Part shown: piece by piece, positions 3,001-6,000 of the stretch | Layout: every line of letters starts with the position of its first letter | Position numbering within the stretch: the stretch's first letter is position 1 | Source: a virus | Lineage: Duplodnaviria > Heunggongvirae > Uroviricota > Caudoviricetes | Virus record (IMG/VR): IMGVR_UViG_2671180656_000012 | Location: 1 to 13,516 of that record | Strand: one strand, 5' to 3' | DNA length: 13,516 nt | Position numbers: made by a program

Positions 3001-6000
3001 GGTAAATCGTCCCCAGAGAACCATTACGTTGCTTCGTGATATTAATTTCTGCGATGCCCCCGGCCTGCGTATCCGGGTTGTACACTTCATCCCTGTAAAG
3101 CATCAGAATGATGTCAGCATCCGCCTCTATTTCTCCGGAATTTTTCAGGTCTGAGTTCATGGGACGTTTATTTGGTCTGGACTCCACACCGCGGGAGAGC
3201 TGACTCAGCGCAATCAACGGAAAACCACCGGATTTTGCCAGGCCTTTAAGTCCCTTTGAGATTTCACCCACGGCAAGGTCATGACGCCCCGTGGTTCGGG
3301 TTTTTATCAGCCCGAGATAATCAACCACCACCAGTGCCGTTTCCGGATGTTTAATCAAATGGTGTTTCGTTGTTGCGCATATCTCGTCAATGGTCAGGTT
3401 CGCCTGGTCCACCATCCAGATATTGCGTCCGGTCATCAGCTCCACCCCCTTAATGAAACGCGCCCAGTCTTCGTCACCAAAGTTAGAGACAGATTTCAGG
3501 CGCGATACAGGCATTCCTCCGGCAGCAGACACCATGCGTTCACCGATCTGAATGTTCGCCATTTCCATTGTGAACAGAAGAACACCGCGCCCCTGTTCAG
3601 TCACTTTGTCGATGATATCCAGCGCCAGTTCGGTTTTGCCCATTGACGGACGAGCCGCAATAAATACCAGGTCGCCGGGCTCCATGCCGCCTGTTTTTGC
3701 GTCCAGTTCATCAATACCGGTCATCAACGTCCTGGATTTCTCCAGCCCCTGATTCCGGCATTCAACACGGTCAACCACTTCCGGAAGCACATCATCAATA
3801 TGTACCGGCTGAATTGCGCCTTTTTCCATCGACAATGAGGCCATCATGTTTTGAGCATCCTTCAGAGCATCCTCGGCTGCTTCACAGGTATGCGCATCAC
3901 GTAAATTCTGTAATGCTTCGGTCAGTGTTTTTTCTGCATCGCGCAGTGCGGCATTGCGTCGCAGTGCTGCAACATAGTGTTCCAGAGATGACTTCACCCA
4001 GGTTTTACGCCCGGTATCAGTAATCACCGGGGCAAGTTCCGGCATCTCATTGCACAACAGCACAGGATCAATCACGCCGGACACACGGGCCTGTCTGCAG
4101 ATGCCTGTGTATATATCCCGGTACGGTCGTACAGAAAAAACGTCCGCCGGTAGTGTGGCCAGAATATCCATCACTTCCGGATCTGCCCCACGCAAAAAGA
4201 ATGCGCCAATAACAGCACCTTCCAGATCATCGTTACGCCAGACCGGGCTTTTCTGGCTGATCATGCTGCCACACCTCCGGCATGTGCACGGTAGCTGGGC
4301 CAGTTAAAGGACAACAGGTTACGGCCACCATCCGTAACCCTGTCAGCAATACGTGGACTGATGTATGCCCACAACGCCTTCGGTGAAAGATTGCTGATCA
4401 GGATGGTTGGCAGAATGCTTTCGTACCGGGCATTGATAATTTCCTGAAGAATGGCCATTTCCGCCGCGCTACCAAACTGGACACCCACTTCGTCGATAAT
4501 CAGCAGATCCAGTGATGCATAATGCTCAATCACCTCATCCGCAGTTTTTTCGCTGTCATTCCGCCAGCAGTTTTTCACAGCCCGGGTCAGGCGCATCACG
4601 TCGGTGATCTCAACACTGGCGAGATAGTTGCGGATGACATATTTTGCCATCGCAACCGCCAGGTGATTTTTACCGGTGCCACAACTGCCAGTCAGCACGA
4701 GATTTGTGCCGTTCTCCAGAACATCCGCCCAGTTTTCGGCATAGCGACGACAGGCAGCAAGATTTCTGGCTGCGTCAGGATTAATCTCCTGATAGTTTTC
4801 AAACTCACAGTCACGAAAACGCAGTGCAATTCCGGCGTTATCAGTCAGTTCTTCCGCCTTCAGGGACGACAACTCCATAATCACATCGTTGATTTCAGCA
4901 CTCAGGCAATGAGGGCAGTGTGAAATTTTCTCTCTGTCCTCGCCATTACGATCCCCCCACACCAGAATATGCGTGTGATATTCGCCATGTTTTTCGCAAT
5001 ATCCGCGACCTTCACGCATCCGGCAGGAACGATAAGGCCACGGTTTTTCCCCAGTCTCCGCAAACGCCATCTCAGACCGTAACTCATCCATCCGCGCCTG
5101 TAGTCTTGTTTGTTGTTCACGCAGGTTAAACGTCATCATCGCTGTCACCTCAGAATGTTAAGTTGTCACTGGATTTACCGAATTCGTCAGACATGGCACC
5201 AAGACCAGACAGGATATCTATCTGTCGCTGTCGCCCACCTCCGGGAGCGGCTGGCTGTTGCCAGAAATCTTCGAAGTGACGATCGGGTCCAAAGAACGTC
5301 GCAGCCTGCTTCACGAACTGTGTGCCGGTATTTCCTGTAGCACGTACCCAGGCGGCATAACGTCTCACACCATCAAGCATGGTCTCCGGTTTTATTCCCT
5401 CCCTGATACGGGCTTTCCAGGCTTTGAAGGCTGCTGACTTGGAATTGCCACCAGCACGTTTGGGATATTCCTGCCAGGCCTGTTCAAATTCCGGTGAATA
5501 TTCCTGTCGGGCAGAACGTGCTGGTGCAGACGCATCAGCGGATGCGCCAATAGTGTTTTTACTCTCTGTAGTATTCTCTGAAGTAATCTCTGTTGTATTC
5601 TCTGTAAGATCGAAATTGGTTTTCCCTTCTCCGCGGCGAGGGGTTTCCCGTGTCCGCGGTGAAGGCTTTCCCTCCTCCGCGAAATTGGGTTTTACAGTTT
5701 CCCGAAAACGGGTTTCCCCATTTCGGGAAAACTGATTGTTTTCATTGATAATTTCATTAAGGCGCTCACAATCTATACGGTAGAACATTTTGTGCTCAAG
5801 ACGCTTGTTGGTTTCAACCAAAATGCCTCTGGACACAAGATGCTTACGCGCTACAGCCTGTTGTTCAAATGTAAGTCCGGTTTCGTGTTGTATCTCTTCA
5901 CGCGTTTTATGTACGCCTTCCGCTGCATGTGCTTTATCCTGCCAGTAAAAAATCTGACCAAAGAAAATAACAGCGTGCGGACTTCCCATGTATTTAACGA

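Follow-up and report, generated by a model that had tools for sequence, protein, structure and literature searches.

Positions 5558-5732 of a 13,516-nucleotide (nt) stretch of viral DNA (IMG/VR record IMGVR_UViG_2671180656_000012, positions 1 to 13,516; hereafter the window) are very probably the vegetative replication origin of a Shiga toxin (Stx) 1a-converting lambdoid phage. As judged by comparative sequence analysis, the origin lies inside the linker-coding part of the phage's own initiator gene and comprises five 23-bp repeats (iterons) and an array of 12-bp repeats. A first-pass annotation had proposed an iteron-type origin at this place in the gene. That proposal is supported by constraint on the repeats at the DNA level, by maintenance of their register in relatives, by recurrence of the layout in other initiators and by the position of the putative origin of phage 80alpha. 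The arrangement of iterons inside an initiator gene is already known (lambda, P22, L, SPP1, 80alpha). A further element is the array of 12-mers, which is conserved as DNA and, together with a 22-23-bp spacing of the iterons, appears to mark many initiator-embedded origins across phyla.

Five direct repeats with an exact 23-bp periodicity had been reported and were borne out at 5618-5732, where they give the strongest periodic signal of the window. The units start at plus-strand positions 5618, 5641, 5664, 5687 and 5710 and occupy the antisense strand of the initiator open reading frame (ORF). The gene and the repeats, in gene direction, are as follows.

5150-6064, minus strand: initiator gene, an ORF of 304 amino acids (aa) from GTG at 6064; the deposited start is ATG at 6058
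5710-5732, minus strand: iteron unit 5 (first in gene direction), GTTTTCCCGAAATGGGGAAACCC
5687-5709, minus strand: iteron unit 4, GTTTTCGGGAAACTGTAAAACCC; GGGAAA half degenerate, TTCGGGAA half intact and inverted relative to unit 5
5664-5686, minus strand: iteron unit 3, AATTTCGCGGAGGAGGGAAAGCC
5641-5663, minus strand: iteron unit 2, TTCACCGCGGACACGGGAAACCC
5618-5640, minus strand: iteron unit 1 (last in gene direction), CTCGCCGCGGAGAAGGGAAAACC
5606-5617, minus strand: junction; half-iteron AATTTCGATCTT in the 23-bp register, with a GATC (Dam) site at 5608-5611
5558-5605, minus strand: four 12-bp repeats, gene strand ACAGAGAATACA ACAGAGATTACT TCAGAGAATACT ACAGAGAGTAAA, coding TENTTEITSENTTESK (aa 154-169)

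The motif GGNTTTCCC occurs exactly four times in the window, always in register (5618, 5641, 5664 and 5710), where 0.33 copies are expected by chance; four copies were reached in 0/200 shuffles. The unit at 5687 has GGGTTTTAC at this position (two mismatches) and keeps the other half-site. TTTCCCNNNTCCGCG is exact in units 1-3. The column-majority score for five units has a single peak in the window, 88/115 at 5611-5618 (window mean 58, standard deviation 3.8); the best score among 200 block shuffles was 78. When periods of 15-30 were scanned, period 23 scored 0.765 and every other period 0.644 or less. Tandem Repeats Finder caught only 2.7 copies (5621-5681) because the right halves of units 4 and 5 differ. 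Across nine relatives the gene-strand consensus is nTTTTCGCGAAnnnGGGAAAnCC, a TTCSSGAA palindrome together with a near-palindromic GGGAAAnCC. The internal dyads reported for some of the repeats are real in units 4 and 5, where TTTCCCGAAAACGGG and CCCCATTTCGGGAAA are 87% complementary because TTCCCGAA (unit 5) and TTCGGGAA (unit 4) are one site in opposite orientations. Beyond unit 1 the register continues into a sixth unit, AATTTCGATCTTACAGAGAATAC, which begins like an iteron and has the first 12-mer as its end.

The initiator was modeled with AlphaFold2 from 31 homologues, with only moderate confidence. Its predicted domains are encoded on either side of the repeats.

5735-6007, minus strand: coding region of the predicted winged-helix DNA-binding N-domain, about aa 20-110 (AlphaFold2)
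5285-5506, minus strand: coding region of the helical C-domain, about aa 187-260 (AlphaFold2 helices 191-258)

The model has a winged-helix-like N-domain (aa 20-110; secondary structure H-H-E-H-H-E-E-H; predicted local distance difference test score (pLDDT) about 70-76) and a helical C-domain (aa 190-258), separated by a disordered segment (aa 110-186, pLDDT about 28). The C-domain is presumed to recruit partner proteins. The iterons code aa 111-149, inside the disordered segment, which agrees with their earlier assignment to the linker-coding part of the gene. Foldseek searches returned only winged-helix proteins, of MarR and ArsR types and RepA_N plasmid initiators (5kbj, 4pql, 4pt7), with weak E values (0.02-0.1). 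Since these matches are generic and weak, we do not assign the protein to any particular structural family. No sequence match came from a profile search with the initiator against solved structures.

Deposited names for the initiator are 'phage replication protein O' and 'primosomal protein I'. The gene and its product are 100% identical to those of Stx1a-converting phages (LC567819 and others), in which the protein is annotated 'phage replication protein O', and the protein matches PHROG 270 (phrog_270), 'replication initiation protein', at 8e-66. No Pfam (E≤0.01) or NCBIfam family matched it. The description of the initiator as O-like therefore holds for its architecture and not for homology. 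The Pfam family Phage_rep_O (PF04492) matches lambda O at 5.7e-36 and does not match the window protein, and hhalign comparison of the N-domain alignment with lambda O gave a probability of 0.2%.

Since 23 is not a multiple of three, one DNA motif is read in three frames (GET, RET, EGK). Relatives were collected with the N-domain protein rather than with DNA, from Yersinia, Morganella and Burkholderia genomes and 80 IMG/VR contigs; a scan of genome contigs for relatives gave only 3 loci, the viral collection being far richer. Among nine diverse relatives, diversity at codon positions 1, 2 and 3 was 0.165, 0.102 and 0.553 in N-domain coding sequence. In the iteron block it was 0.304, 0.287 and 0.311, with no codon structure, and instead tracked the 23-bp register (0.04-0.64). 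Almost all relatives have five units at the same place in the gene (unit boundary at nt 441). Yersinia, Morganella and IMG/VR prophage relatives keep both register and position to an N-domain identity as low as about 60% (L069). Where identity falls to about 52%, one group has RCAAAnnC in place of the GGGAAAnCC half-site and retains the register. This pattern of variation indicates that constraint on the repeats acts at the DNA level and not on the protein. The first-pass annotation had counted conservation at the protein level only as evidence against an origin; the homologs do not show it.

The 12-mer array (ACAGAGAWTACW) lies directly downstream of the iterons in gene direction, outside the coordinates given in the first-pass annotation. 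Tandem Repeats Finder reported a period of 12 with 3.7 copies, and comparison with WCARAGANTACW gave three exact matches and one with a single mismatch. The array has a GC content of 0.33, a coding-strand purine fraction of 0.69 and a stacking-energy minimum, its 40-bp energy ranking within the 3.5-5% of the window that is least stable. In some close relatives the gene is 921 rather than 909 nt long and carries an additional 12-mer. At the junction with the iterons, TTCGATC is kept in all listed Enterobacterales relatives of the initiator family. In other array-bearing families GATC occurs within 12 nt of the array in only some loci.

Codon usage in the array was compared with that elsewhere in the same genes in 19 relatives found through protein similarity. 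The Glu codon was GAG in 53/53 cases in the array and in 142/400 (35%) elsewhere. Thr codons were ACA or ACT in 109/112 cases (97%) in the array and in 133/304 (44%) elsewhere. Third-position diversity was 0.18 in the array and 0.55 in the N-domain. GC content of the array is low in all relatives, 0.31-0.39 even in Burkholderia genes of 60% GC. These results suggest, with moderate confidence, that 5558-5605 is the unwinding and helicase-loading element of the proposed origin.

The first-pass annotation had pointed to an AT-rich stretch adjacent to the repeats. Such a stretch exists at 5733-5762 on the other side of the iterons, and it is unlikely, though it is the best of the alternatives, that the origin opens there and the 12-mers serve another purpose. 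At 0.23 its GC content is the lowest nearby, and its stability minimum (rank 0.043) is comparable to that of the array. However, the AT-richness is not conserved, GC content reaching 0.43 in enterobacterial relatives and 0.57-0.63 in Burkholderia. The stretch codes the end of the last predicted N-domain helix and varies like ordinary coding sequence, with diversity of 0.465 at codon position 3 vs 0.29 at positions 1 and 2. Probably it does no more than encode the last part of the N-domain. In lambda, too, O transcription passes the iterons first and the AT-rich region after them, and downstream is the array side here. For these reasons the proposed unwinding element was placed at 5558-5605, which is also the low-GC element that is conserved.

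IMG/VR was scanned for exact patterns of two consecutive 12-mers to examine the spread of the array. At least 120 contigs contained them, and 80 loci were analyzed. The array lies in one reading frame inside an ORF in 80/80 loci, and 68 of the 80 have a complete initiator-like ORF with the array about 140-200 codons in. The encoded proteins form three large unrelated N-domain clusters and three or four C-domain clusters, and the two kinds are variously combined. Over the 160 nt that precede the array, the best period was exactly 23 bp in 70/77 loci and 22 bp in four more. Repeat sequence co-varies with the DNA-binding domain, as other N-domain families have entirely different units at the same place. 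Genes following the array-bearing initiators vary (DnaC-like plus DnaB-like, lambda-P-like (Phage_lambda_P) or small PerC/DUF977 proteins), which led us to abandon the notion of one specific phage-encoded loader as the reader of the array.

When the 55-nt array region was compared with GenBank phages by BLASTN, 121 records matched, nearly always within genes whose given names are replication initiation, O-like, DnaD or primosomal protein I. Among the hosts are Acinetobacter, Klebsiella, Erwinia, Vibrio, Burkholderia, Xanthomonas, Bacillus and Staphylococcus. Three layouts were inspected visually and with autocorrelation. In Bacillus phage PM1, four 22-bp units are followed by ACAGAGATTACT ACAGAGAATACA ACAAAGACTACT ACAGAGAGTAAT. 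Staphylococcus phage 37 has four 23-bp units followed by three 12-mers (ACAGAGATTACT array), and Acinetobacter phage TRS1 has five 22-bp units followed by the array. The Staphylococcus and Bacillus arrays use the same codons. In the sequences compared, then, a layout of predicted winged-helix domain, its own 22-23-bp iterons, ACAGAGAWTACW array and C-domain recurs across unrelated initiator families and host phyla. We define the class as at least two tandem WCARAGANTACW units in the frame T-E-[IN]-T, directly after a block of 22-23-bp periodicity, some 140-200 codons from the start of an initiator gene that has about 300; the window belongs to it. The 23-bp repeat length had been taken as a sign of distinct initiator specificity. 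This interpretation fails, because lambda spacings are 20, 24 and 23 bp and 70/77 loci of unrelated families share the period. Since a 22-23-bp period is common to many unrelated families, specificity would reside in iteron sequence.

Mosaic joints coincide with the array. phiP27 and PhiR49_2 share 94-95% DNA identity with the window over the C-domain half only, ending at about 5554 (the array edge), and have different N-domains. In P0048 a different N-domain with its own linker repeats is joined to an identical array and C-domain, and the C-domain type of the window is paired with other N-domains in both P0048 and P0081. The N-domain with its cognate iterons and the C-domain thus behave as separate modules joined at the array. 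Naturally occurring variants agree with the constraint imposed by coding: compared with P0040, P0038 has exactly 23 residues fewer (69 nt, or three 23-bp units). P0004 and P0006 lack 20 and 30 residues over the first units, and P0006 also lacks the N-domain end. The linker-deletion variants P0004, P0006 and P0038 are possibly defective prophages.

The array also occurs outside an initiator gene. Bacillus plasmid pBSG3 (NC_014104; L212), of 8.4 kb, carries three 22-bp PM1-like iterons and three identical ACAGAGATTACT units at 735-845. Neither pBSG3 nor its near-identical relatives have an N-domain ORF; stops lie upstream in the matching frame and the sole ORF crossing the region is in another frame. 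The plasmid has its own 'protein rep' gene and types as MOBV by relaxase. Its sequence suggests that the cassette of iterons and array persists there as DNA without an initiator, although this is one plasmid lineage and could be a recent remnant. The cassette could be such a remnant, or a means of replication by an infecting phage.

We wondered whether the array is more than a tract that melts easily, namely a sequence-specific origin element common across phyla and read by a shared factor, forming with the 22-23-bp spacing a portable origin cassette. From the comparisons above we offer this as a tentative proposal that falls somewhat short of an even chance. Different DNA-binding and helicase-recruiting domains may have been swapped around the shared cassette. 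Candidates for reading the array are an initiator binding one strand, loading of a DnaB-family helicase or primase, and an R-loop of the purine-rich transcript. The question raised is what reads a 12-bp motif unchanged from E. coli to Staphylococcus phages while the flanking initiator domains swap. The combination of 22-23-bp iterons followed by ACAGAGAWTACW repeats provides a testable signature for locating origins in initiator genes of Proteobacteria and Firmicutes phages and in some plasmids.

The position of the array exactly at the boundaries of the N- and C-domain mosaics, where domains are shuffled, and its identical frame in all loci analyzed would also fit an array kept mainly as a recombination joint or for its encoded peptide (TE[IN]TTE, an acidic Thr-rich spacer) rather than as an origin element. 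We consider this slightly less likely than opening at 5733-5762. A purely peptide-level constraint does not predict the frozen synonymous positions of Glu and Thr codons, the identical codon use of Staphylococcus and Bacillus phages, or an array GC content of up to 0.39 in 60% GC Burkholderia genes. Three identical array copies persist in pBSG3 without an initiator ORF, and in 80alpha AT-rich repeats stand at the array position inside an annotated putative origin. Furthermore, recombination and origin roles are compatible with each other.

Plasmid iterons act in both initiation and control, and the repeats might accordingly be initiator sites for autoregulation, copy control or incompatibility (titration or handcuffing), with the true origin elsewhere in the phage. 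This is very improbable. The 13.5-kb window, which holds the whole early-right region, contains no second iteron-like cluster, the search being limited to the window. The sites are about 300 bp inside the gene and not at a promoter. They adjoin the conserved low-stability array and precede loader and helicase genes, which is the layout of proven origins (lambda, SPP1, 80alpha; PMC8022706, PMC5499656).

Least probable of all is that the periodicity reflects a low-complexity protein repeat or an mRNA structure regulating initiator translation: the encoded segment is indeed of low complexity and disordered, but a protein repeat is rejected since the period is not a multiple of three, so that the peptide does not repeat, and since variation lacks codon structure; and sense RNA of 5556-5740 folds better than shuffled sequence (-57.4 kcal/mol, z = -4.24), but the sites are dyad-symmetric, which accounts for the good score, the consensus fold has no covariation support (term +0.93, pairs mostly invariant), no Rfam family matches the region, and in other families the 22-23-bp direct-repeat layout persists with units that are quite different and lack complementarity.

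A replication origin at 5558-5732 therefore remains the preferred reading, and a mechanism can be proposed for it. The N-terminal winged-helix domain, probably as a dimer, would occupy the phased iterons. Because 23 bp corresponds to about 2.2 helical turns, phased occupancy could build a wrapped, O-some-like complex, and stress from this complex would open the adjacent 12-mer array. The opened strands would then receive the DnaC-like loader and DnaB-like helicase of the phage by way of the C-domain. Opening may be aided by transcription of the gene, which places purine-rich RNA over the array, as in the transcriptional activation of lambda.

Several points weigh against this reading. Support for the origin, for binding and for melting is wholly comparative. 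The N-domain was modeled with moderate confidence (pLDDT about 70-76) and its fold matches are weak (E 0.02-0.1). With a GC content of 0.33 the array is only moderately AT-rich, and opening may instead occur at another stretch of low stability, which adjoins the iterons at their opposite end. Every array copy found is in one reading frame, and some selection on the encoded peptide is possible. Pattern and BLAST searches for the array favor DNA similarity by construction; the unbiased evidence is that of the 19 relatives found through protein.

Other signals were sought around the origin. The window contains only two TTWTNCACA matches (4571 and 6846), no more than chance, and no DnaA box is close to the proposed origin. 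A promoter and terminator scan of the region gave no signal above chance. One feature lies just past the array.

5529-5548, strand not assigned: imperfect palindrome GACGCATCAGCGGATGCGCC, seven pairs with one mismatch; membership in the origin uncertain

In the lineage of the window a palindrome at least this good occurs in 0.08 of background sequence. Strong palindromes are found just after the array in L071, L075, L072, L069 and L078 and are absent from other relatives. They differ in sequence, have arms of up to 10 bp and include a recurrent GCTGACG/CGTCAGC motif. A conserved lambda-like palindrome past the array is therefore an uncertain feature, being significant in some lineages but weak and not significant in that of the window and in several close relatives.

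The initiator gene is followed by two replication genes.

4261-5148, minus strand: DnaC-like AAA+ helicase-loader gene; Pfam IstB_IS21 (4.7e-16) and Bac_DnaA; phrog_50 'DnaC-like helicase loader' (7.5e-85)
2864-4264, minus strand: DnaB-like replicative helicase gene; Pfam DnaB_C (1.4e-71) and DnaB N-domain

The loader gene is directly downstream of the initiator gene on the same strand; its NCBIfam DnaC matches fall under the cut-off. The window is about 96% identical to Stx2a and Stx2d phages and Escherichia phage ASU11. In LC567819 the corresponding region is flanked by cI/cro-type immunity genes and by the Q antiterminator and stx1AB. The replication module of non-O initiator, DnaC-like loader and DnaB-like helicase was found in Stx1a, Stx2a and Stx2d phages. 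The full origin of the window is present in 101/5426 complete E. coli genomes, and the 12-mer array without the full origin in 1416/5426, within other prophage initiator genes.

Toxin gene dosage is driven by the replication that Stx prophages undergo once induced. The Stx origins studied by experiment are of lambda O/P types with six iterons (PMC7466680). A literature search for the replication module of the window returned only lambda-type Stx origins and general reviews, and gave no description of this module among the papers searched. No relevant paper was found for the 12-mer sequence or its encoded peptide, in a collection whose coverage is thin for older subscription-journal work.

Two other parts of the window were observed. 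Of the twelve 40-bp segments of lowest stability in the window, all except two fall in an AT-rich block at 74-2300. The block contains three plus-strand ORFs (125-1177, 1178-1570 and 1510-2232), which in LC567819 bear the annotation hypothetical and are found between Q and stx1, and it has the look of foreign cargo. The minus strand carries two antirepressor-like genes of Rha/Ash type (Phage_pRha, Phage_ASH) at 6275-7297 and 7300-8007, which separate the cro-side genes from the initiator and precede the replication genes.

Lambda is one of the closest points of reference for the layout. As in the window, the lambda iterons occupy the middle, linker-coding part of their initiator gene, and units of both have dyad character. 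The first-pass annotation contrasted the window with lambda in repeat number and length. The contrast of five units vs four stands, and the iteron sequence differs as well; the contrast in length does not stand, as it set the period of the window against the length of the lambda iteron (18-19 bp). Annotated lambda iteron starts are 20, 24 and 23 bp apart, a spacing similar to the 23, 23, 23 and 23 of the window. Both have a low-GC region, purine-rich on the coding strand, directly downstream of the iterons (purine 0.66 and GC 0.27 in lambda, 0.69 and 0.33 in the window), which is an ordered 12-bp array in the window and an irregular A-rich tract in lambda. At the right edge of the lambda AT-rich ori region (39162-39173; L205 563-574), TCAGAGAATTCT matches TCAGAGAATACT of the window at 11/12 positions on the coding strand; this could be a coincidence or one array copy that has diverged. 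Unlike lambda, the window has an initiator outside the Phage_rep_O family. Helicase delivery also differs, the window encoding an AAA+ DnaC-like loader and a DnaB-like helicase whereas lambda P captures host DnaB.

The initiator genes of lambda, P22 and L each contain their own, different repeats (PMC8022706). P22 and L share with the window the principle that distantly related ori-binding proteins bind different repeats inside their own coding regions, although the repeats themselves differ (four of about 20 bp in P22, six of 11 bp in L; PMC8022706). A phage DnaB-type helicase (gp12) is encoded downstream in P22 and L (PMC8022706), and the window additionally has a DnaC-like loader. SPP1 (G38P/oriL, G39P loader, G40P helicase) has its origin in the replisome-organizer gene, followed by loader and helicase genes, an arrangement like that proposed for the window.

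In 80alpha, ORF20 is not complementable in trans, and ORF20 with the DnaC-like ORF21 suffices for autonomous replication (PMC5499656). The putative origin is annotated inside gp20, at the same relative gene position as the units of the window, and consists of iterons followed by AT-rich ACTAATAAT-type repeats where phage 37, with the same C-domain type, has the 12-mer array. These repeats, at 2780-2870 of 80alpha (L210), code TNNNSTNNDLTNNNNTNNE. The 80alpha N-domain differs from that of the window, and ACTAATAAT-type repeats replace the 12-mers. A different repeated AT-rich tract can thus fill the array position.

Plasmid Rep proteins bind one strand of the repeated 13-mers of the DNA unwinding element (DUE) sequence-specifically (PMC4081077), which by analogy would be a precedent for a sequence-specific unwinding element here. 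Iteron plasmids (RK2 TrfA, F RepE) have phased direct repeats bound by winged-helix initiators and an adjoining unwinding element of short repeated 13-mers; the phased repeats, predicted winged-helix N-domain and proposed unwinding element of the window resemble these. They differ in that the proposed origin of the window has no DnaA boxes nearby and would be a phage lytic origin, not a copy-controlled plasmid origin. RepA_N plasmids carry iterons inside the rep gene. N-domains of pSK41-type RepA are among the weak Foldseek matches (5kbj, 4pql, 4pt7), with no sequence relationship shown. E. coli oriC has a 13-mer DUE (GATCTnTTnTTTT three times) beside initiator sites, with GATC at its edge. 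The array of the window has another unit sequence and, at GC 0.33, far lower AT-richness; it is part of a coding region and shows no indication of DnaA involvement. Like the oriC DUE, it consists of tandem low-stability units of 12-13 bp beside putative initiator sites, with GATC (5608-5611) at the edge.

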